DNA of 64,000 bases, taken from Escherichia coli. Its GTDB lineage: Bacteria > Pseudomonadota > Gammaproteobacteria > Enterobacterales > Enterobacteriaceae. The DNA lies in assembly GCF_030384885.1 (NCBI RefSeq), contig NZ_CP128613.1; one strand, 5' to 3'. This document shows, piece after piece, positions 2,890 through 59,465 of this stretch (the first letter of the stretch is position 1; every line of letters starts with the position of its first letter). Both the position numbers and the translations under genes were made by a program. Below the pieces are notes generated by a model, which saw nothing but the letters and a program-made list of their open reading frames with translations, made no database searches and was not told the origin of the DNA.

Positions 2890-2928
2890 CGCAAAAAAAC
2901 CACCCGGCAGCGAAATTTCACCGCCGGG
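2890..2928 (-). terminator. Rho-independent terminator after phoA
   Basis: Minus strand reads CCCGGCGGTGAAATTTCGCTGCCGGG followed by a T7 run, directly 3' of the phoA stop. Confidence 0.6.
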
Positions 2929-2935
2929 CGAGGTT

Positions 2936-19879: not shown

Positions 19880-20509
19880 ATGATTAGGGTTGTGCTGGTG
19901 GATGACCATGTGGTGGTGCGCTCTGGCTTCGCACAATTACTCTCTCTGGAAGACGATCTGGAGGTCATTGGTCAGTACAGTTGTGCCGCGCAGGCATGGT
20001 CGGCATTAACTCATAATGACGTTAATGTTGCCGTCATTGATATCGCCATGCCGGACGAAAATGGCCTCAGTCTGCTTAAGCGTCTGCGTGCACAAAAACC
20101 GCAATTCCGCGCCATTATTCTTAGCATTTATGACACGCCAACCTTTGTACAAAGCGCTCTGGATGCTGGTGCCAGCGGCTATTTGACCAAACGCTGTGGG
20201 CCGGAAGAGTTAGTGCAGGCGGTGCGCTCGGTCGGGATGGGCGGGCATTATCTCTGCGCCGATGCAATTCGGGCTTTACGCGGCGGCGAGCAACCCGCCC
20301 AGGCGCTGGAAATTCTCACCCCACGAGAACGTGAAGTGTTTGATTTATTAGTCAAAGGCGACAGTGTAAAAGAGATCGCCTTTAAGCTCGAACTCAGCCA
20401 TAAAACGGTACATGTACATCGCGCCAACGTGCTGGGAAAACTGAACTGTCATAGCACCATTGAGCTGGTGCATTTTGCACTCAATCACCATCTGCTGGCG
20501 GGGCATTAA
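19880..20509 (+). CDS. NarL/FixJ-family response regulator, UhpA-like
   Basis: 209 aa; receiver domain (VVLVDDH, acceptor Asp in VIDIAMPD) plus LuxR-type HTH; close in architecture to UhpA. Confidence 0.85.
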   Translation: MIRVVLVDDHVVVRSGFAQLLSLEDDLEVIGQYSCAAQAWSALTHNDVNVAVIDIAMPDENGLSLLKRLRAQKPQFRAIILSIYDTPTFVQSALDAGASGYLTKRCGPEELVQAVRSVGMGGHYLCADAIRALRGGEQPAQALEILTPREREVFDLLVKGDSVKEIAFKLELSHKTVHVHRANVLGKLNCHSTIELVHFALNHHLLAGH

Positions 20510-22050
20510 TGTCGCGTAACCTTCGTCATTGGGTGATTTCGCTGTTTATTGTGCTGGCCTGGGGAAGCGGCTGGCTGATGTTGTGGACGCTCAGCTTTTA
20601 TCTGACCAATAACGGTCAACAGGCAGTGTTATTTCTGCCGCACGGAGTTTACCTCGCTCTTCTTATTTTGCTCTCTCGCCGTTACTGGCCTGCGTTGGTG
20701 CTCCCCCCTTTGCTGATGATGTTCTGGCTGCACAGCGAGCAACTGTTGAACGGCTATCTCATGCTGGCAACGCCGGTTATTAGCCTGCTTCCTGCCATCC
20801 TTGCACAAAACGTCTGGCACCGTTTTCCACTTTACTGGCAGCGTCTGACGTTGCTGCTAGCCTCAGTAACAGCAGCTTCATTGCTGAATACAGCCATGCT
20901 AACCCCTTTTATGTCAGGCCCAATAATGCTGCCCGGTCTGACCTCATTTACCGGCGGCGTATTGTTGACGCCGTTTGTCTATCTCATCTTTGAGTTTCTG
21001 CGCCAGCAGCATCGCTATCAGCTTCTGAGACTCGATACGCATAATCCCCCCTTGCGAACCTCTTTAATCATCTGGTGTAGCCTATTTTTTATTATTGGTA
21101 TCGGCACCCAGATGGTGTTGTCGCCTGAAATCGAACGCCTGCTGCTGATCGTGGTATTTCTACCCAATGTGGTCATGGCCTGGAAATTTGGCTGGCAAGG
21201 TGGCGTACTCTCGGGGCTTTTGGGCAGCATGATGATCACTATTGCCCGCCAGATTGGCGTGGGCTTTAGTAACCTGGTGGAACTGGAGATTTTTCTCGCA
21301 ACCCAGGCATTGCTGGGAATTGGCCTGGGCATTGCCATCAGTCGCCAGCAACATCTGGCGCTAAACCTGCATCATTACCGTCAGCGACTGGAGGCAGAAC
21401 TGGCAGCACGGCGGGCATTGGCTGAAAAGCTGATCCACACCGAGGAAGACACGCGTAAAAGCCTGGCTCGCGAGCTGCACGACGAAATCGGTCAGAACAT
21501 TACCGCCATTCAGATCCAGTCGCAACTGGTGACGCGGGCACGCGATCCGGCGCAAGTTCATTCCGCAGCTAGCCAAATCAACGAACTCGCCCGCCGCATT
21601 CATCTCTCCACCCGCCAGTTGCTGCGCCAGTTGCGGCCACCCGCGCTTGATGAACTGACATTCCGCGAAGCATTACTTCATCTGATTAATGAATTTGCCT
21701 TTAGTGAACGCGGCATTCATTGCCAGTTTACCTATCAACTAACCACCACGCCAGAAAACGAAACGGTTCGCTTTACACTGTATCGGTTATTGCAGGAGTT
21801 ACTCAATAACGTCTGTAAACACGCCGAAGCCAGCGAAGTGACGATTATTCTGCGCCAGCAGGGAGAGATATTGCACCTGGAGGTCAGCGACAACGGTATA
21901 GGAATCGCCAGCGGGAAAATGACCGGATTTGGCATTCAGGGGATGCGTGAACGCGTCAGTGCCCTGGGCGGCGACTTAACGCTCGAAAAACATAACGGTA
22001 CGCGAGTAATTGTTAACCTGCCCACATTTTTGCAACAAATCGCCGGATAA
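20509..22050 (+). CDS. Sensor histidine kinase, UhpB-like (polytopic N-terminus, HisKA_3, HATPase)
   Basis: 513 aa; about 8 N-terminal hydrophobic segments; H-box ELHDEIGQ; ATPase region; start overlaps the upstream stop (TAATG). Confidence 0.85.
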   Translation: MSRNLRHWVISLFIVLAWGSGWLMLWTLSFYLTNNGQQAVLFLPHGVYLALLILLSRRYWPALVLPPLLMMFWLHSEQLLNGYLMLATPVISLLPAILAQNVWHRFPLYWQRLTLLLASVTAASLLNTAMLTPFMSGPIMLPGLTSFTGGVLLTPFVYLIFEFLRQQHRYQLLRLDTHNPPLRTSLIIWCSLFFIIGIGTQMVLSPEIERLLLIVVFLPNVVMAWKFGWQGGVLSGLLGSMMITIARQIGVGFSNLVELEIFLATQALLGIGLGIAISRQQHLALNLHHYRQRLEAELAARRALAEKLIHTEEDTRKSLARELHDEIGQNITAIQIQSQLVTRARDPAQVHSAASQINELARRIHLSTRQLLRQLRPPALDELTFREALLHLINEFAFSERGIHCQFTYQLTTTPENETVRFTLYRLLQELLNNVCKHAEASEVTIILRQQGEILHLEVSDNGIGIASGKMTGFGIQGMRERVSALGGDLTLEKHNGTRVIVNLPTFLQQIAG

Positions 22051-22122
22051 CCAGGAAAAAGTCTTAGGCATCCCGGATTTTCTCTCATCCTCTTTCACTT
22101 TCATTTTCATATAGTCAGCAAC

Positions 22123-23439
22123 ATGGAGACGACCATGCACGCGCGTTCAGCGAGAGAGATTAATCAATGCTACCGGACATTACGTCCGCGATTGCTGATG
22201 TGCATGATTATTGGCTACGCCGCATTTTATCTGACGCGAAAAAGCGTGAATTACGTCCTTCCGGCGCTGCAAACCGACCTCGGACTGGATAAAGGCGACA
22301 TTGGCCTGCTGGGTTCGCTGTTTTATCTCAGCTACGGATTGTCGAAATTTACCGCCGGACTGTGGCATGACAGCCACGGACAACGCGGTTTTATGGGCAT
22401 CGGCTTGTTCGCCACTGGGCTATTGAACGTGGTGTTTGCCTTTGGCGAATCACTTACGCTTCTGCTTGTGGTCTGGACACTGAACGGATTTTTTCAAGGC
22501 TGGGGGTGGCCACCGTGTGCCCGCTTACTGACCCATTGGTACTCCCGTAATGAACGTGGTTTCTGGTGGGGCTGCTGGAATATGTCGATCAACATTGGCG
22601 GAGCGATTATTCCGCTGATTAGCGCCTTTGCCGCCCACTGGTGGGGCTGGCAGGCCGCGATGCTGACACCGGGGATTATCAGCATGGCATTAGGGATCTG
22701 GTTAACGCTACAGCTTAAAGGCACACCCCAGGAAGAGGGATTACCGACGGTGGGTCAGTGGCGTCACGATCCGCTGGAATTACGTCAGGAACAACAAAGT
22801 CCGCCGATGGGTCTGTGGCAAATGTTGCGCACCACAATGCTGCAAAATCCGATGATCTGGCTGCTGGGTGTCTCTTATGTACTGGTTTATGTGATCCGGA
22901 TTGCGTTAAACGACTGGGGCAATATCTGGCTGACGGAAAGCCACGGCGTCAACCTACTCAGCGCCAACGCCACGGTAATGCTGTTTGAAGTGGGCGGCTT
23001 ACTCGGCGCGTTATTTGCCGGATGGGGTTCGGATTTGCTGTTTAGCGGGCAGCGAGCCCCCATGATTTTGCTGTTTACCCTTGGGTTGATGGTTTCGGTC
23101 GCTGCACTCTGGTTGGCACCGGTTCATCACTATGCCCTTCTGGCTGTGTGCTTTTTTACTGTGGGCTTTTTTGTCTTTGGCCCGCAAATGCTGATTGGAC
23201 TTGCGGCAGTGGAATGTGGACACAAAGCTGCGGCGGGTTCAATCACCGGATTTCTCGGTCTGTTCGCCTATCTCGGTGCGGCGCTGGCAGGCTGGCCGTT
23301 GTCGCTGGTTATCGAACGCTACGGCTGGTCGGGAATGTTCAGTTTACTCTCGGTCGCCGCAGTACTTATGGGTTTACTGCTGATGCCGTTACTGATGGCG
23401 GGCATCACCACCACTCACGCTCGAAGGATAAAACAATGA
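22123..23439 (+). CDS. MFS organophosphate:phosphate-antiporter-family protein, UhpC-like sensor
   Basis: 438 aa; many matches to UhpC from memory (FYLTRKS, GVSKF, CARLLT.WYSR.ERG, NDWGN, FGPQMLIG). Alternative start at 22135 has a better SD. Confidence 0.8.
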   Translation: METTMHARSAREINQCYRTLRPRLLMCMIIGYAAFYLTRKSVNYVLPALQTDLGLDKGDIGLLGSLFYLSYGLSKFTAGLWHDSHGQRGFMGIGLFATGLLNVVFAFGESLTLLLVVWTLNGFFQGWGWPPCARLLTHWYSRNERGFWWGCWNMSINIGGAIIPLISAFAAHWWGWQAAMLTPGIISMALGIWLTLQLKGTPQEEGLPTVGQWRHDPLELRQEQQSPPMGLWQMLRTTMLQNPMIWLLGVSYVLVYVIRIALNDWGNIWLTESHGVNLLSANATVMLFEVGGLLGALFAGWGSDLLFSGQRAPMILLFTLGLMVSVAALWLAPVHHYALLAVCFFTVGFFVFGPQMLIGLAAVECGHKAAAGSITGFLGLFAYLGAALAGWPLSLVIERYGWSGMFSLLSVAAVLMGLLLMPLLMAGITTTHARRIKQ

Positions 23440-24467
23440 AAATGCCCCTTACCTCTACTCTGATTGCTTCTGCCGTTGCGCTGGCAACCTTAACGGGTGC
23501 CGCACAAGCGAAAGGTCGACTGGTGGTCTATTGCAGCGCCACTAATGAAATGTGTGAGACCGAAACCAAAGCGTTTGGCGAGAAATATGATGTGAAAACC
23601 TCGTTTATCCGCAACGGCTCCGGTAGCACCCTGGCAAAAGTCGATGCTGAAAAGAAAAACCCACAGGCTGACGTCTGGTACGGCGGCACCTTAGACCCGC
23701 AGTCGCAGGCCGGCGAGATGGGCCTGTTACAGGCATATAAATCGCCTAACCTTGAACAGATCATGGAAAAATTCCGCGATCCGGCAAAAGTGAAAGGAAA
23801 CCTTTCCTCCGCCGTTTATGTGGGGATCCTCGGGTTTGGCGTCAACACAGAGCGTCTGAAAGAGAAAAACCTGCCTGTGCCGAAGTGCTGGAAAGATCTC
23901 ACCAAACCTGAATATAAAGGCGAAATTCAGATTGCCGATCCACAAAGTTCCGGTACCGCCTACACCGCGCTGGCTACCTTTGCGCAGCTGTGGGGGGAAG
24001 ATCAGGCCTTTGATTATCTAAAACAACTGAACGCCAACGTCTCCCAGTACACCAAATCAGGCATAGCCCCGGCACGTAACGCCGCCCGTGGCGAAACGGC
24101 GATTGGTATTGGCTTCCTGCATGACTACTCGCTGGAAAAAGAACAGGGCGCGCCGCTGGAGTTGATTTCCCCGTGTGAAGGTACGGGCTACGAAATTGGC
24201 GGCGTCAGCATTCTGAAAGGCGCGCGCAACCTCGACAACGCCAAACTGTTTGTGGACTGGGTATTATCAAAAGAAGCTCAGGAACTGGCGTGGAAGAAAG
24301 GGAAGTCTTATCAGATCCTGACCAATACCACCGCCGAAACGTCGCCAAATTCGCTGAAGCTCGACGACCTGAAATTAATCAACTACGACATGGATAAATA
24401 CGGTTCAACTGATGTTCGTAAGGCATTAATTAATAAATGGGTCAGCGAAGTGAAGATGGGTAAATAA
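23436..24467 (+). CDS. afuA: ABC transporter periplasmic substrate-binding protein, AfuA/FbpA family
   Basis: Start MKMPLTSTLIASAVALATLTGAAQA at 23436; the ATG overlaps the stop of the MFS gene (ATGA). Upstream 5' extension of the ORF rejected. Confidence 0.75.
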   Translation: MKMPLTSTLIASAVALATLTGAAQAKGRLVVYCSATNEMCETETKAFGEKYDVKTSFIRNGSGSTLAKVDAEKKNPQADVWYGGTLDPQSQAGEMGLLQAYKSPNLEQIMEKFRDPAKVKGNLSSAVYVGILGFGVNTERLKEKNLPVPKCWKDLTKPEYKGEIQIADPQSSGTAYTALATFAQLWGEDQAFDYLKQLNANVSQYTKSGIAPARNAARGETAIGIGFLHDYSLEKEQGAPLELISPCEGTGYEIGGVSILKGARNLDNAKLFVDWVLSKEAQELAWKKGKSYQILTNTTAETSPNSLKLDDLKLINYDMDKYGSTDVRKALINKWVSEVKMGK

Positions 24468-24478
24468 ACCCGCATTGC

Positions 24479-26614
24479 GTGCACTTGCCGGGTGCAGCAC
24501 AGACGCCTGCCCCGGCCAACCATACCGGAACTGCTATGTCACAGACACTTGCACTCCATCCCGCGAAAAAGCGGGATGCGATTTTCCTTTGGGTTTTGCT
24601 GGGCTGGCTGGCATTTATCCTGTTGCCGAGCTGGAGTCTCGATTATGGTCTGCTGGAGTCCACGAGTGATGAGATCCTCGAGGCGTACAGCTGGTCGCAT
24701 TTTAATATCAGCTGGCTGTGGTATTTACTCCCGAGTTTGCTGCTGGTTCGCCCGTTTAATGAGGCCAAACGCGAGCAGCGTAGCCGTCATTATTTTGATG
24801 CAGGCTGGGCATTGCTTTGTATAGCGTTTATGGTCATCAGTGCCACCATCGTTGGCCGCGGTCTAGGCTACGCCGCCATCGTGCTGTTTATCGAATTAAG
24901 CGCGATAATGACGCTGGCCTTAACCCGCCTCGAATGGCTGGGTGGCGACCGCTTTGTGATCGGCTCGCTGATTGCGATTGTGGCGCTGATTGGCATTTTT
25001 ATCGTCTGGCCGAGCATCGCCATTTTTATCCCGATGTTCACCAACGACGCGGGAGGGTTCGCCCCACTGGCGTTTATGAATGTGCTCTCGCAGGCACATA
25101 TTGTTCAGGTGATCGTCAACTCCATCGTCTTATCGATAGCGGTGGGTATTGGCTGTACTTTCTTCGGTCTGGTGCTGGCGATATATACCACGCGCATCGC
25201 TAAACGCAGCGCAGTAATCGGCCGCATCTTTTCCATTCTGCCAATTGTCACGCCACCGTTTGTGGTCGGCTTAGGCGTTACGCTCATGATGGGGCGCTCC
25301 GGCTACATAACGGAATTTATGGTGGAGTGGTTTGGGCTGACCAACACCAACTGGCTGTATGGTTTTACCGGGATCTGGCTGGCACAGGTCCTGGCATTTA
25401 CGCCAATGGCTTTTATGATCCTCGATGGGGCCATTAAAACCATTCATCCCTCGCTGGAAGAAGCCTCCTACACCCTGCGCGCCAGCCGCTGGCAAACCTT
25501 TAACGGTGTGTTTGTGCCGTTGTTAAAGCCCGCGCTTGCCAATGCCTTTTTAATCGTCGTGGTACAGTCACTGGCTGACTTCAGTAACCCGCTGGTGCTT
25601 GGCGGCAACTTCGACGTACTGGCGACGCAAATTTACTTCTACATTACCGGCTCGCAGCTGGATTATCAGGCCGCCAGCACCCTTGGCGCTTTCCTGCTGC
25701 TGTTCTCGCTACTGGTGTTCTGCGTCCAGTATATGTGGATTGGTAAACGCTCTTACGTCACGGTTTCCGGAAAGTCCTACCGCGGCGATGTCCAGCCACT
25801 ACCGGTCACCCTGGTGTGGAGCGTGGTCGCCATACTTGCGATATGGATTGCCTTTAACGCCCTGCTCTATGGCAGCATTTTCTACGGCAGCTTCACCGTG
25901 AACTGGGGCGTAGACTACACCCTAACGCTGGATAACTTTATCAAGTTATTTGGTCAGGGGATGAGCGACGGCGCATGGCCTTCACTGTTAGATACCTTGC
26001 TCTACGCCGGGATTGCCGCACCCATTACCGCTATTTTTGGCCTGCTCATCGCCTGGGTGGTGGTGCGCCAACAATTCAAAGGCAAAAAGACCATCGAGTT
26101 CACCACCATGTTGTGCTTTGCCGTACCGGGTACAGTGGCGGGTGTCTCGTATATTCTTGCCTTTAATAGCGCCCCAGTCTATCTCACCGGAACGGCAGCA
26201 ATTGTGATTATCTCGATGGTGATGCGCAACGTTCCGGTGGGTATTCGCGCCGGGATTGCAGGTCTGGGGCAGATCGACAAATCGCTGGATGAAGCCTCAC
26301 TTAGCCTGCGTGCGGGTTCCCTGCGAACCATTACGCACATTTTACTGCCGTTGTTACGCCCAGCTATTCTCTCGGCCCTGATTTACAGCTTTGTGCGGGC
26401 TATCACGACGGTCAGCGCCATCGTCTTTCTCGTCACGCCGGACACACGCGTGGCAACCGCCTACATCCTTAACCGCGTAGAAGACGGCGAATATGGCGTA
26501 GCCATCGCCTACGGTTCGATTCTGATCGTGGTGATGCTGGCGATTATTTTCCTCTTTGACTGGCTGATCGGTGAAGCACGTATTTCCCGTTCTAAAGCCA
26601 AAAACCAGGCGTAA
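24479..26614 (+). CDS. afuB: ABC transporter permease with two fused transmembrane domains, AfuB/FbpB family
   Basis: 711 aa maximal ORF, highly hydrophobic with duplicated permease halves; true start may be the internal ATG at 24536. Confidence 0.8.
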
Positions 26615-26625
26615 TGGAGCGCACT

Positions 26626-27672
26626 ATGAGTCAGAAAAATTTTGTGGAACTGCGCAACGTCACTAAACGATTCGGCAGTAATACGGTTATCGACAATATC
26701 AATCTCACCATCCCACAAGGGCAAATGGTGACGCTGCTCGGTCCTTCCGGATGCGGCAAAACCACCATTCTGCGTCTGGTTGCCGGGCTGGAAAAACCGA
26801 GCGAAGGGCAAATTTTTATAGATGGCGAAGATGTCACGCATCGTTCCATTCAGCAACGCGATATCTGCATGGTGTTTCAGTCATACGCTCTGTTCCCACA
26901 TATGTCGCTGGGCGAAAACGTTGGCTATGGGTTGAAAATGCTTGGCGTGTCGCGTAGTGAAGTGAAGCAGCGGGTGAAAGATGCGCTAGCAATGGTGGAT
27001 CTGGAAGGATTCGAAGACCGCTATGTCGACCAGATTTCCGGTGGTCAGCAACAGCGTGTGGCTCTGGCCCGTGCGTTGATCCTTAAGCCTAAAGTGCTGC
27101 TGTTTGATGAGCCGTTAAGTAACCTCGATGCCAACCTGCGTCGCAGCATGCGCGATAAAATCCGCGAGCTGCAAAAGCAATTTAACATCACTTCGCTCTA
27201 TGTGACTCACGATCAAAGTGAAGCTTTCGCGGTGTCCGACACCGTGTTGGTGATGAATAAAGGTCACATCATGCAAATTGGCTCGCCGCAGGATCTCTAT
27301 CGTCAGCCCGCCTCCCGCTTTATGGCAAGTTTTATGGGCGACGCCAACCTGTTCCCGGCGAACTTTAGCGAAGAGTATGTCGATATCTACGGTTATCGCC
27401 TGCCGCGCGCGGCGCATTTCCCGGCGCAAGGTAGCGGCACCGTCGGCGTTCGCCCGGAAGCCATCACCTTAAGCAATCACGGCGAAGAGAGTCAGCGTTG
27501 TGTTATTCGCCATGTCGCCTACATGGGGCCGCAGTACGAAGTGACCGTAGAATGGCATGGTCAGGAGATTTTATTGCAAGTCAACGCCACCCGTTTACAG
27601 CCCGATATTGGTGAACACTATTACCTCGAAATCCATCCTTACGGGATGTTTGTTTTAGCGGATGCGGCATAA
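26626..27672 (+). CDS. afuC: ABC transporter ATP-binding protein, AfuC/FbpC family
   Basis: Start [11 protein letters not shown] with GGAG 7 nt upstream; Walker [10 protein letters not shown]; signature [13 protein letters not shown]; Walker B LLFDEP. Confidence 0.85.
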
Positions 27673-27754: not shown

Positions 27755-27807
27755 ATATACTATAGGGGGGTATGCATTGACATATGGCATACCCCCCTAT
27801 AGTATAT
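27755..27807. promoter_or_regulatory. FrmR operator: 21-bp inverted repeat with G6/C6 tracts
   Basis: ATATACTATAGGGGGGTATGC - 11 bp - GCATACCCCCCTATAGTATAT, ending 25 bp upstream of the frmR start. Confidence 0.6.
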
Positions 27808-27831
27808 TGCGTGCAGATGATGAGGTGCGAA

Positions 27832-28107
27832 ATGCCCAGTACTCCGGAAGAGAAGAAAAAGGTCCTTACTCGAGTTCGTCGTATTCGGGGGCAAATTGAT
27901 GCTCTGGAACGGTCGCTGGAGGGTGATGCCGAATGCCGTGCCATACTCCAACAGATCGCTGCCGTTCGGGGCGCGGCTAACGGGCTGATGGCAGAAGTGC
28001 TTGAAAGCCATATCCGGGAAACGTTTGACCGAAATGACTGCTACAGCCGCGAAGTCAGCCAATCCGTTGACGACACTATTGAACTGGTTCGTGCCTATCT
28101 TAAATAG
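27832..28107 (+). CDS. frmR: Formaldehyde-responsive repressor FrmR (RcnR/CsoR family)
   Basis: ORF 27784-28107; start [27 protein letters not shown] at 27832; 91 aa. Confidence 0.9.
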
Positions 28108-28111
28108 CTGA

Positions 28112-29251
<1,140 letters not shown>

Positions 29252-29343
29252 TTTCCCGCTGATTTCGCCCCGTCCAGTTCAGACGGGGTTCTCAATACCG
29301 TCCCCGGGCAGCCGTCCGGGGATTAACCATGAGATAATGACTG

Positions 29344-30177
29344 ATGGAACTCATTGAAAAACATGCCAGCTTTGGCGGCTGGCAAAATGTGTATCGGCAT
29401 TATTCCCAATCACTGAAATGTGAAATGAATGTCGGCGTCTATCTCCCACCAAAAGCCGGGAATGAAAAATTGCCGGTACTGTACTGGCTTTCGGGCCTGA
29501 CCTGTAACGAGCAGAATTTCATTACTAAATCGGGGATGCAACGTTACGCGGCTGAGCACAACATTATTGTTGTTGCGCCAGACACCAGTCCGCGAGGCAG
29601 TCATGTCGCAGATGCCGACCGTTACGATCTCGGGCAAGGTGCCGGGTTTTACCTGAACGCAACGCAAGCGCCGTGGAATGAACATTACAAAATGTATGAT
29701 TATATCCACAACGAGTTGCCGGATTTAGTGATGCAACATTTTCCGGCAACGACCAGAAAGTCTATCTCAGGTCATTCTATGGGCGGGCTGGGCGCGCTGG
29801 TGCTGGCGTTACGTAACCCAGATGAATATGTCAGCGTCTCGGCGTTTTCGCCCATTGTCTCCCCATCGCAAGTACCGTGGGGACAGCAAGCCTTTGCCGC
29901 ATATCTTGGTGAAAATAAAGATGCCTGGTTGGATTACGATCCGGTTAGCCTTATTTCACAAGGTCAACGCGTTGCGGAAATCATGGTTGATCAAGGATTG
30001 AGTGATGATTTTTACGCAGAACAGCTGCGGACTCCAAATCTTGAAAAGATCTGCCAGGAGATGAATATCAAAACGTTAATCCGTTATCACGAGGGTTATG
30101 ATCACAGCTATTATTTTGTCTCCAGTTTTATTGGCGAGCATATTGCCTACCACGCCAATAAACTGAATATGCGTTGA
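29344..30177 (+). CDS. frmB: S-formylglutathione hydrolase
   Basis: 277 aa; esterase motif GHSMGG. Confidence 0.95.
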   Translation: MELIEKHASFGGWQNVYRHYSQSLKCEMNVGVYLPPKAGNEKLPVLYWLSGLTCNEQNFITKSGMQRYAAEHNIIVVAPDTSPRGSHVADADRYDLGQGAGFYLNATQAPWNEHYKMYDYIHNELPDLVMQHFPATTRKSISGHSMGGLGALVLALRNPDEYVSVSAFSPIVSPSQVPWGQQAFAAYLGENKDAWLDYDPVSLISQGQRVAEIMVDQGLSDDFYAEQLRTPNLEKICQEMNIKTLIRYHEGYDHSYYFVSSFIGEHIAYHANKLNMR

Positions 30178-30184
30178 GCATCCG

Positions 30185-30392
30185 CGCACGCCAGCCGGAT
30201 GCGGCGTGAACGCCTTATCCGCCTACATTTCGCCCATAAACCGTAGGCATGATAAGACGCGCATAGCGTCGCATCAGGCATCTGCGCACAACTGCCGGAT
30301 GCGGCGTGAACGCCTTATCCGGCCTACATTTCGCCCATGAGCCGTAGGCATGATAAGACGCGCAAAGCATCGCATCAGGCATCTGTGCACGG
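30185..30392. repeat. REP/BIME cluster, two tandem units
   Basis: Duplicated about 100-bp unit with GCCGGATGCGGCGTGAACGCCTTATCCGGCCTAC-type palindromes between frmB and yaiL. Confidence 0.8.
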
Positions 30393-30403
30393 CTTATCGA
30401 TGA

Positions 30404-30943
30404 TTACCACATCAAATCATCAGGCACTTTAAAGTCGGCATACGGATCGTCTTCATCCTGCTCTTCGGCGCTGAGCGCGCTGTGCAACACAATACTGCTG
30501 GCGTCACGCTGAGCAATTTTATCGGCAACGCTGGCGGGAATAATGGCGTATTCACCTTCGCTATTGTTATCGATCTGCAAACGTGCAATCGCCAGACGAC
30601 CATTAATCAACTGCGTTTGCGTGAGCTTATCGACAAAAATCTTCTTAATCAGATTGCCATCGGTAAAGTTAAAACCGATATCGCCATTGGCAATGGTGAT
30701 CCGGTTCATTTCAATAAGCTGCTTCACCTGAGCTTTATATTCTTTCGCCAGTGCCGCTTGTTTTTGCTGCTCGCTAAGCTGTTTATCACGCTCAAGCTGT
30801 GCCTTTTTATTTTCTTCTACCGCCGCCCGAGCCTCACGCGCCTGAACGCGCGATTTTTTCGCCGTTCTCTCGACCTTCGCCGCTTTTTTGCTGGTGACTA
30901 ATCCTGCTTTGAGCAACTGCTCTTGTAAGGTAAGTTTTGCCAT
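30404..30943 (-). CDS. yaiL: DUF2058-family protein YaiL
   Basis: ORF 30404-30955; start MAKLTLQEQLLKAGLV at 30943; lysine/glutamine-rich. Confidence 0.85.
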   Translation of the reverse strand: MAKLTLQEQLLKAGLVTSKKAAKVERTAKKSRVQAREARAAVEENKKAQLERDKQLSEQQKQAALAKEYKAQVKQLIEMNRITIANGDIGFNFTDGNLIKKIFVDKLTQTQLINGRLAIARLQIDNNSEGEYAIIPASVADKIAQRDASSIVLHSALSAEEQDEDDPYADFKVPDDLMW

Positions 30944-32334: not shown

Positions 32335-32535
32335 GCCTACGGACGAAAGTAGGCCGGATAAGGCGTTTATGCCGCATCCGGCAGTCGTGCACAGATGCCT
32401 GATGCGACGCTGACGCGTCTTATCATGCCTACAAATTCCCGCGCCATCCGTAGGCCGGATAAGGCGTTTATGCCGCATCCGGCAGTCGTGCGCCATTGCC
32501 TGATGCGACGCTGACGCGTCTTATCAGGCCTGGGA
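32335..32535. repeat. REP/BIME cluster, two tandem units
   Basis: Repeated GGCCGGATAAGGCGTTTATGCCGCATCCGGCAGTCGTGC ... GCCTGATGCGACGCTGACGCGTCTTATCA units between mhpT and mhpE. Confidence 0.8.
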
Positions 32536-54297: not shown

Positions 54298-54645
54298 GAT
54301 AAGACACGCCTGCGTCGCATCAGGCATCTGCGCACGGTGTCGGATGCGGCGCGTGCGCCTTATCCGACCTGCGGTTCAGGCCTGTAGGCATGATAAGACG
54401 CGTCAGCGTCACATCAGGCATCTGCGCACGGTGTCGGATGCGCCGCGTGCGCCTTATCCGACCTACGGTTCAGGCCTGTAGGCATGATAAGACGCGCCTG
54501 CGTTGCATCAGGCATCTACGCATAGCTGTCGGATGCGCCGCGTGCGCCTTATCCGACCTGCGGTTCAGGCCTGTAGGGATGATAAGACGCGTCAGCGTCG
54601 CATCAGGCATCTGCGCACGGTGTCGGACGCGCCACACGACACATC
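54298..54645. repeat. BIME/REP tandem array, about 3.6 units with 94-95 bp period
   Basis: Unit CGCATCAGGCATCTGCGCACGGTGTCGGATGCG.CGCGTGCGCCTTATCCGACCTGCGGTTCAGGCCTGTAGGCATGATAAGACGCG repeats from about 54316, 54410, 54505 and 54599. Confidence 0.85.
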
Positions 54646-59275: not shown

Positions 59276-59465
59276 GTTGTCGGATGCGACGCTATGCGTC
59301 TTATCCGACCTACAGTTCAGTTCATCCCGTAGGCCTGATAAGCCGCGTCAGCGACGCATCAGGCATCGGTTGTCGGATGCGACGTCATGCGTCTTATCCG
59401 ACCTACAGTTCAGTTCATCCCGTAGGCCTGATAAGCCGCGTCAGCGGCGCATCAGGCATCGGTTG
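59276..59465. repeat. BIME/REP tandem array, two units with 94 bp period
   Basis: TTGTCGGATGCGACG..ATGCGTCTTATCCGACCTACAGTTCAGTTCATCCCGTAGGCCTGATAAGCCGCGTCAGCG.CGCATCAGGCATCGG repeated from 59276 and 59370. Confidence 0.8.

Follow-up and report, generated by a model that had tools for sequence, protein, structure and literature searches.

The spacer between frmA and frmB, in the formaldehyde detoxification operon repressed by FrmR (PMC5146963), carries two independent GC-rich stem-loops, HP1 and HP2. Judged from the sequences of its homologues, HP2 is part of the 5' flank of frmB and not of the 3' end of frmA, and its maintenance as sense-strand RNA is strongly supported, while the same claim for HP1 is weakly supported. 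The earlier note on this DNA had presented the hairpins as a pair tied to the frmA-frmB junction. This description does not hold, since HP2 follows the frmB flank whatever gene lies upstream and HP1, confined to Escherichia, was added separately. The sequences show the structures, their conservation at the level of sense-strand RNA, and the linkage of HP2 to frmB, and the functional steps, in mRNA stability, in termination, and in the setting of the frmA:frmB ratio, are inferred. The reading that we favor, with somewhat less than even confidence, is that both stem-loops act passively in the sense mRNA, HP1 as a leaky terminator or a barrier to 3' exonucleases, and HP2 as a stabilizing or insulating hairpin bordering the frmB ribosome-binding region on its 5' side. 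The effect proposed in the note, on read-through or mRNA stability and thereby on the frmA:frmB ratio, may be considered plausible. Literature searches returned nothing on the frmA-frmB spacer. The element is previously undescribed and of a well-known kind, and its hairpins look like ordinary intercistronic structural elements, not a new type of regulator.

Table 1. Features of the frm locus in the window (the whole 64-kb stretch of E. coli DNA that was analyzed)
Feature	Position	Strand	Description
frmR	27832-28107	+	Annotation
frmA	28142-29251	+	S-(hydroxymethyl)glutathione dehydrogenase CDS; ORF list and RefSeq annotation of a near-identical genome, same coordinates
frmA stop codon	29249-29251	+	TGA; ORF list
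frmA-frmB spacer	29252-29343	+	92 nt, between the frmA stop and the frmB ATG
HP1	29267-29289	+	8-bp stem: 5' arm 29267-29274 GCCCCGTC, loop 29275-29281 CAGTTCA, 3' arm 29282-29289 GACGGGGT
Linker	29290-29299	+	Single-stranded, TCTCAATACC; doubles as the HP1 tail; TTCTTAATAC in most E. coli
HP2	29300-29323	+	10-bp stem: 5' arm 29300-29309 GTCCCCGGGC, loop 29310-29313 AGCC, 3' arm 29314-29323 GTCCGGGGAT
frmB leader	29324-29343	+	Conserved, unpaired, TAACCATGAGATAATGACTG; nearly invariant across 16 orthologues
Mini-ORF	29329-29337	+	Two codons, ATG AGA TAA
SD-like GAGA	29331-29334	+	In the frmB leader
frmB (fghA)	29344-30177	+	S-formylglutathione hydrolase CDS, ATG at 29344; ORF list and RefSeq annotation of a near-identical genome

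The inverted repeats from which the note started, CCCCGTC/GACGGGG (29268-29288) and CCCCGG/CCGGGG (29302-29321), are present at these coordinates and extend to the stems of HP1 and HP2, respectively; as it had stated, both lie in the intercistronic spacer of one operon, between the frmA stop codon and the frmB ATG (Table 1). Folding of the sense RNA, one of the checks that it had proposed, reports stable structures for HP1 (-14.5 kcal/mol, z -5.1), for HP2 (-19.4 kcal/mol, z -4.0), and for a 106-nt stretch that encloses the spacer (29245-29350; -40.2 kcal/mol, z -3.1), for which 1 of 200 shuffles folds equally well. In a scan of all 33-nt windows of the 64 kb on both strands, HP2 belongs to the 17 most stable plus-strand hairpin loci (top 0.07% of windows), while 92 plus-strand loci reach -14.5 kcal/mol or lower (top 1%), the level of HP1. 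Therefore HP2 is rare by energy alone and HP1 needs comparative support. Each exact inverted-repeat pattern occurs once in the window. Some 15-18% of shuffles yield at least one match to the pattern at up to two mismatches, so that the pattern is weak evidence by itself and it is conservation that lifts it above chance. The frmA-frmB spacer was found in 5415 of 5426 complete E. coli genomes. The allele of the window has a counterpart at ≥99% identity in only 5 of these, and the match is at 90-95% identity in 5411. Upstream of frmR, the window (19880-27672) encodes a two-component system, a uhpC-like gene, and an ABC transporter ending in fbpC, where K-12 has yaiO/yaiX instead. These differing upstream genes, together with the rare spacer allele, suggest an E. 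coli lineage that is in the minority, or a segment that arose by recombination.

The FrmB scan, with one genome per species, covers 80 loci. The clade of E. coli-type frmB genes (amino-acid identity of 79% or more) occurs in two contexts. The first, frmR-frmA-HP1-HP2-frmB, is that of chromosomal Escherichia. The second is a mobile cluster, frmR-frmA-VOC-fghA, which contains an HP2 homologue and is devoid of HP1. The mobile cluster is seen in Enterobacter, Aeromonas, Morganella, Edwardsiella, Serratia, and Providencia (loci L002, L007-L013, and L084-L090, both plasmid and chromosomal), and the arrangement, with its glyoxalase-like VOC gene, is present on 426 plasmids of Klebsiella, Enterobacter, Citrobacter, Salmonella, and other genera. 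In chromosomal Escherichia, ~21 nt separate HP2 from the frmB ATG downstream of it, and the HP2 homologue of the mobile cluster lies between the VOC stop codon and frmB at an unchanged distance from the ATG. It is this constancy of position behind a different upstream gene that assigns HP2 to the frmB flank. The leader that follows HP2, AA(A/T)TAACCATGAGA(T/C)A, is common to both contexts. The stem itself reads CCCCGGGC/GYCCGGGG in Escherichia as compared with CCCCTGAC/GTCAGGGG in the mobile cluster. The two contexts differ at pair p5 by a compensatory change between G-C and U-A, and pair p7 is G.U, G-C, or A-U. The loops vary freely, and one plasmid allele exhibits a cUUCGg tetraloop closure.

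Covariance-model matches for HP2 were obtained in all orthologues. The alignments used were that of the covariance model and one made by hand, MAFFT having misplaced the loop-length gap. In the covariance-model alignment (13 distinct sequences), 95.2% of cells are standard pairs and four pairs are changed on both sides. The covariation reaches 0.286 against 0.171 for shuffled alignments, and none of 500 shuffles attains it, in an alignment that is fitted to the model and whose sequences form two clades. Sliding the partner arm by 1-3 columns lowers the pairing to 27-64%. HP2 shows the structural feature expected of an intercistronic stability hairpin, namely a conserved sense-strand stem-loop in an intra-operon spacer; HP1 is consistent with the class but weak. 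The strand on which the pairing is kept can also be read from the substitutions. In the hand alignment, 115 of 117 cells are canonical on the sense strand versus 105 of 117 on the antisense strand, and 11 cells are G.U, equivalent to A.C on the other strand. Sense folds are at least as stable as antisense ones, markedly so where wobbles occur (HP2 of E. coli M9, -15.5 vs -7.6 kcal/mol). An eye count over both hairpins gives ~12 stem substitutions that pair in sense only versus ~2 in antisense only, and because the former outnumber the latter, the sequences point to selection on the sense transcript and speak against a DNA palindrome or an antisense element.

Such an element, whether a palindrome bound by a protein (a second FrmR site, for example) or a terminator of antisense transcription arriving from the frmB side, is very improbable. 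Both hairpins are indeed G/C-tract palindromes, and G/C tracts are a feature of FrmR-family operators (PMC5146963). However, the FrmR operator of this locus (27756-27809, ATACTATAGGGGGGTAT...ATACCCCCCTATAGTAT) has a G6/C6 tract flanked by ATAC/GTAT, flanks that neither spacer hairpin possesses, and the 11 G.U cells of HP2 would be mismatches on the other strand, breaking the symmetry of the DNA, so a second FrmR operator was rejected. On the antisense side, the HP2 of one mobile variant is terminator-like (L007 2453-2481, minus strand, tail CTCTTTATAG), but the antisense tail is not U-rich in Escherichia, and the HP2 of locus L002 is not flagged in antisense either. The Term-seq tables for K-12 (Adams 2021) list antisense 3' ends inside frmB (377694-378012, plus strand), from which it follows that transcription from the yaiL side enters frmB antisense; these ends, although they favor an antisense role, lie within frmB, before the spacer. 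The end at 378012 is also found in a second supplementary table of the same study that compares read counts between two samples. As a side observation, the FrmR operator overlaps a promoter-like TTGACA/TAGTAT and is itself among the most stable local hairpins of the window (-21.7 kcal/mol).

HP1 presents a less clear case. Across 11 Escherichia variants, 96.5% of its cells are paired, and the interior changes of its stem are all wobble-compatible on the sense strand: U-A to U.G in K-12, G-C to G.U in strain 536, and C-G to U.G in Escherichia sp. E1V33; one E. albertii copy has U-A replaced by C-G, a full compensation. The length of its C-run varies (CCC or CCCC). With little variation among the 11 variants, its covariation cannot be told apart from that of shuffles (190 of 500), and HP1 could for that reason be neutral. 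This leads to the possibility, unlikely but deserving some weight, that HP1, and perhaps those details of HP2 that are specific to Escherichia, are by-products without function: a relic hairpin, or a GC palindrome prone to slippage, that persists only because the genus has diverged little. Besides the covariation and the C-run, it would account for the existence of a mobile cluster without HP1, for the tolerance by E. albertii of a ~100-nt insertion and two HP2 mismatches, and for the abundance of structured spacers in the window. It is less easily reconciled with the HP2 pairing, kept across two deeply diverged contexts via changes on both sides, or with the wobble-compatible and compensated changes in HP1. 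Two specific origins of HP1 were also considered and discarded. For a scar left by a deletion of the VOC gene, the alignment is uninformative. As to a relic terminator of an operon made of frmRA only, the Erwinia-like frmRA locus ends with an unrelated canonical terminator.

The E. albertii spacer (L005 2307-2500) deserves a separate description. It measures 194 nt and displays, directly after frmA, a variant HP1 (CCCCGCCCT/AGGGCGGGG, -20.7 kcal/mol), followed by a ~70-nt insert with a REP-like GCCTGATGTGCTACACCTGTCAGGCCTAC and then by a second HP1 copy; the ~100 nt of insertion thus correspond to the variant HP1 copy and the REP-like element. By its sequence, this spacer appears to have received an insertion, with the HP1 region duplicated. 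The HP2 that it carries has two internal mismatches. At the Erwinia-like locus, where frmB is absent (L098 3611-3715), a canonical intrinsic terminator, ACCGGTTAC...GTAACCGGTTTTTTT, is located ~70 nt after frmA, its sequence being unrelated to those of HP1 and HP2.

The stems of HP1 and HP2, 8 and 10 bp long and mostly G-C, are those of intrinsic terminators, but neither is followed by a U-tract in the window. The HP1 tail is UUCUUAAU in most E. coli, which makes it terminator-like, and the allele shared by K-12 and common E. coli (GTTCTTAATA, 5 of 8 T) is flagged as such by a terminator scan. The weaker tail of the window (TTCTCAAT, 4 T in 8 bases) is not flagged. HP2 has the tail ATTAACCA in the window, and no orthologue possesses a sense U-tract at this place. 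That both hairpins are partial intrinsic terminators, or attenuators, lowering transcription into frmB is accordingly improbable. The GC-rich stems, the flagged HP1 allele, and the T-rich tails that follow hairpins in several non-homologous frmA-frmB spacers (Proteus, some Photorhabdus, Vitreoscilla) would fit this mechanism, whereas the run into AUUAACCAUGAG after HP2 and the tail of HP1 in the window do not. Nor do the K-12 Term-seq tables (Adams 2021) list any 3' end at frmA or in the spacer, in cells where the operon is repressed, grown without formaldehyde, so that this absence is a weak argument. Finally, mutation of frmR derepresses frmA as well as frmB (PMC13029678), which means that transcription reads through and that the hairpins are no outright block. 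Leaky intrinsic terminators do exist inside operons, as between rpsU and dnaG. The common E. coli HP1 resembles them by its 7-8 bp GC stem, its 7-nt loop, and its tail GUUCUUAAUA, flagged by the consensus scan. It differs by the interruption of the tail, which is weaker still in the window, and the comparison does not extend to HP2, devoid of a U-tract, nor does K-12 Term-seq report a 3' end in the spacer of the repressed operon.

The position of HP2 in front of frmB raises the question of translation. Its 3' arm (GGGGA or AGGGGAA) is SD-like and pairs with an anti-SD-like 5' arm (UCCCC, or CCUCCUC in Providencia); it is located 7-8 nt upstream of the NUG of a mini-ORF that ends 6 nt before the frmB AUG. 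HP2 could therefore exert translational control, the 5' arm holding the SD-like arm until opening of the hairpin allows translation of the mini-ORF and reinitiation at frmB, a mechanism that we consider quite unlikely. In its favor, the arrangement can be read directly from the sequence, the 3' flank AACCATGAGATAA hardly varies, the GAGA of frmB itself is a weak SD-like motif, and four mobile variants have the upstream ATG in the frmB frame without a stop in between. However, the upstream start is AUG, GUG, CUG (K-12), or ACG (L006, L011), and the frame and length of the mini-ORF vary as well (14 nt in L012, a 2-nt deletion in L088). With neither its start codon (ATG, GTG, CTG, or ACG among orthologues) nor its frame conserved, the mini-ORF was rejected as a conserved coding unit. 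The only start for which the HP2 3' arm has a suitable spacing is this non-conserved upstream NUG. As compared with known hairpins that sequester an SD, or that couple translation through a mini-ORF, HP2 shares the paired SD-like and anti-SD-like arms and the two-codon ORF ending 6 nt before the AUG, but its 3' arm stops 21 nt short of the frmB ATG, too far to serve it directly, and leaves the SD and start of frmB outside the stem. At -15 to -20 kcal/mol, HP2 has no obvious opener, and in silico disruption of either arm causes no consistent change in the predicted accessibility of the frmB ribosome-binding site. An outer stem, UCU(C/U)A:UGAGA, that would hide the SD-like GAGA is predicted in Escherichia, is absent from the mobile cluster, and exhibits no covariation; it was not retained. 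The most elaborate proposal assumes that HP2 and the leader AAYYAACCNUGAGAYAA form a cis-regulatory RNA, as yet undescribed, for the S-formylglutathione hydrolase gene of the E. coli type, an RNA that would couple frmB translation to the opening of the SD/anti-SD hairpin via the two-codon mini-ORF (termination-reinitiation) and would have spread with plasmid formaldehyde-resistance operons by setting FrmB output independently of the upstream gene; we regard it as a long shot. In the commonest mobile allele, no stop separates the upstream ATG from the annotated frmB start, whose frame it shares (ATG AGA CAG AGG CTG ATG), so a 5-residue N-terminal extension of frmB is possible there. At locus L088, the 2-nt deletion breaks the frame between the upstream ATG and frmB.

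Other classes of elements were examined in turn. Rfam 15 reports nothing near threshold, either in a 3.5-kb scan or with the spacer alone, the best spacer match scoring 13.6 bits against a threshold of 70. Neither the REP consensus nor naRNA4 matches the spacer. The hairpin element is single copy, with a median of one place per E. coli genome and one covariance-model match in the window, which excludes a repeat family. RNase III processing stems are near-continuous duplexes of roughly 20 bp or more, a length not approached by stems of 8 and 10 bp. Inspection of the linker by eye did not identify any perfect RNase E motif (RN|WUU). An internal frmB promoter was likewise rejected, no sigma-70-like site being found in the frmA-frmB spacer or in the VOC-frmB spacer; the TATAAA noticed by eye in mobile variants has no accompanying -35 element.

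If we return to the favored reading of two passive stem-loops in the sense mRNA, both hairpins would act during or after transcription, and neither would be a switch operated by a ligand or a protein. HP2 would be the older element, residing in the frmB 5' flank and followed by an A-rich unpaired leader with the weak SD-like GAGA. It may block 3'-to-5' exonucleases that would otherwise degrade the upstream cistrons. The AU-richer linker may serve as an entry site for an endonuclease, and HP2 would then provide the frmB segment with a structured 5' end after the cut. By locking away a G/C-rich stretch, HP2 may also ensure that the frmB ribosome-binding region folds alike whatever the upstream gene. 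HP1, located at the 3' end of frmA with a tail of the UUCUUAAU type, probably represents a weak, leaky terminator or a 3' exonuclease barrier that would favor the frmR-frmA transcript over that of frmB.

This arrangement has counterparts in known operons. The REP hairpins between malE and malF in E. coli, the hairpins of the puf operon in Rhodobacter, and the processing between papB and papA are cases in which intercistronic stem-loops set differential mRNA stability within an operon. By analogy, the frm spacer, with stable GC-rich hairpins in the sense mRNA between genes of one operon, appears placed to block 3' exonucleases and to leave the upstream segment more stable. It differs in that its hairpins are not REPs, the true REPs being located downstream of frmB, and in that HP2 is linked to the downstream gene and not to the upstream 3' end. 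Synthetic tunable intergenic regions, reportedly designed by Pfleger and colleagues in 2006, are said to comprise a hairpin, an RNase E site, and a second hairpin. The Escherichia spacer shows the same succession of a hairpin, an AU-richer linker of 10-14 nt, a hairpin, and a ribosome-binding site. In contrast, it is natural, its linker shows no perfect RN|WUU by eye, and the plasmid clusters carry the second hairpin only. If the hairpins do tune the FrmA:FrmB ratio, the accumulation of S-formylglutathione during formaldehyde detoxification would be affected. This detoxification is clinically relevant through methenamine prophylaxis and plasmid-borne formaldehyde resistance, and the engineering of synthetic methylotrophs, in which frmRAB is often deleted or re-expressed, is concerned as well. 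HP2 is a small RNA motif with covariation, carried by chromosomes and by at least 426 plasmids, between which it moves together with frmB/fghA, and it is a candidate for deposit as an RNA family.

Hairpins in this spacer are not peculiar to the E. coli-type clade. Structured, non-homologous frmA-frmB spacers were found in 17 of the 21 genus-level groups whose spacer measures 35-270 nt. Five groups have a spacer shorter than 35 nt and no hairpin, and a hairpin is therefore not required for the pathway. The window itself provides a baseline: 10 of its 15 co-directional intergenic spacers fold with z ≤ -2.3, and the frmA-frmB spacer (z -4.0, with the highest energy per nucleotide) stands at the strong end of this set without being an outlier. 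Recurrence across genera, which might be taken as evidence of an operon-specific function, is weakened as an argument because most co-directional spacers of the window are structured. The 33-nt scan also reports other very stable local hairpins, between -19 and -26 kcal/mol, at 59424-59459, 2896-2935 (minus strand), 32350-32530, and 54326-54371, several of which are intergenic, for example in the mhpT-mhpE spacer. Lastly, a REP cluster lies downstream of frmB (30184-30418), with an Rfam naRNA4 match on the minus strand (30246-30324, 75.8 bits, above the gathering score). In K-12, the Term-seq tables of Adams 2021 list a strong same-strand 3' end (377325, minus) within the corresponding REP cluster, ~210 nt beyond the frmB stop codon, so that the true 3' boundary of the frm transcript may be REP-protected.
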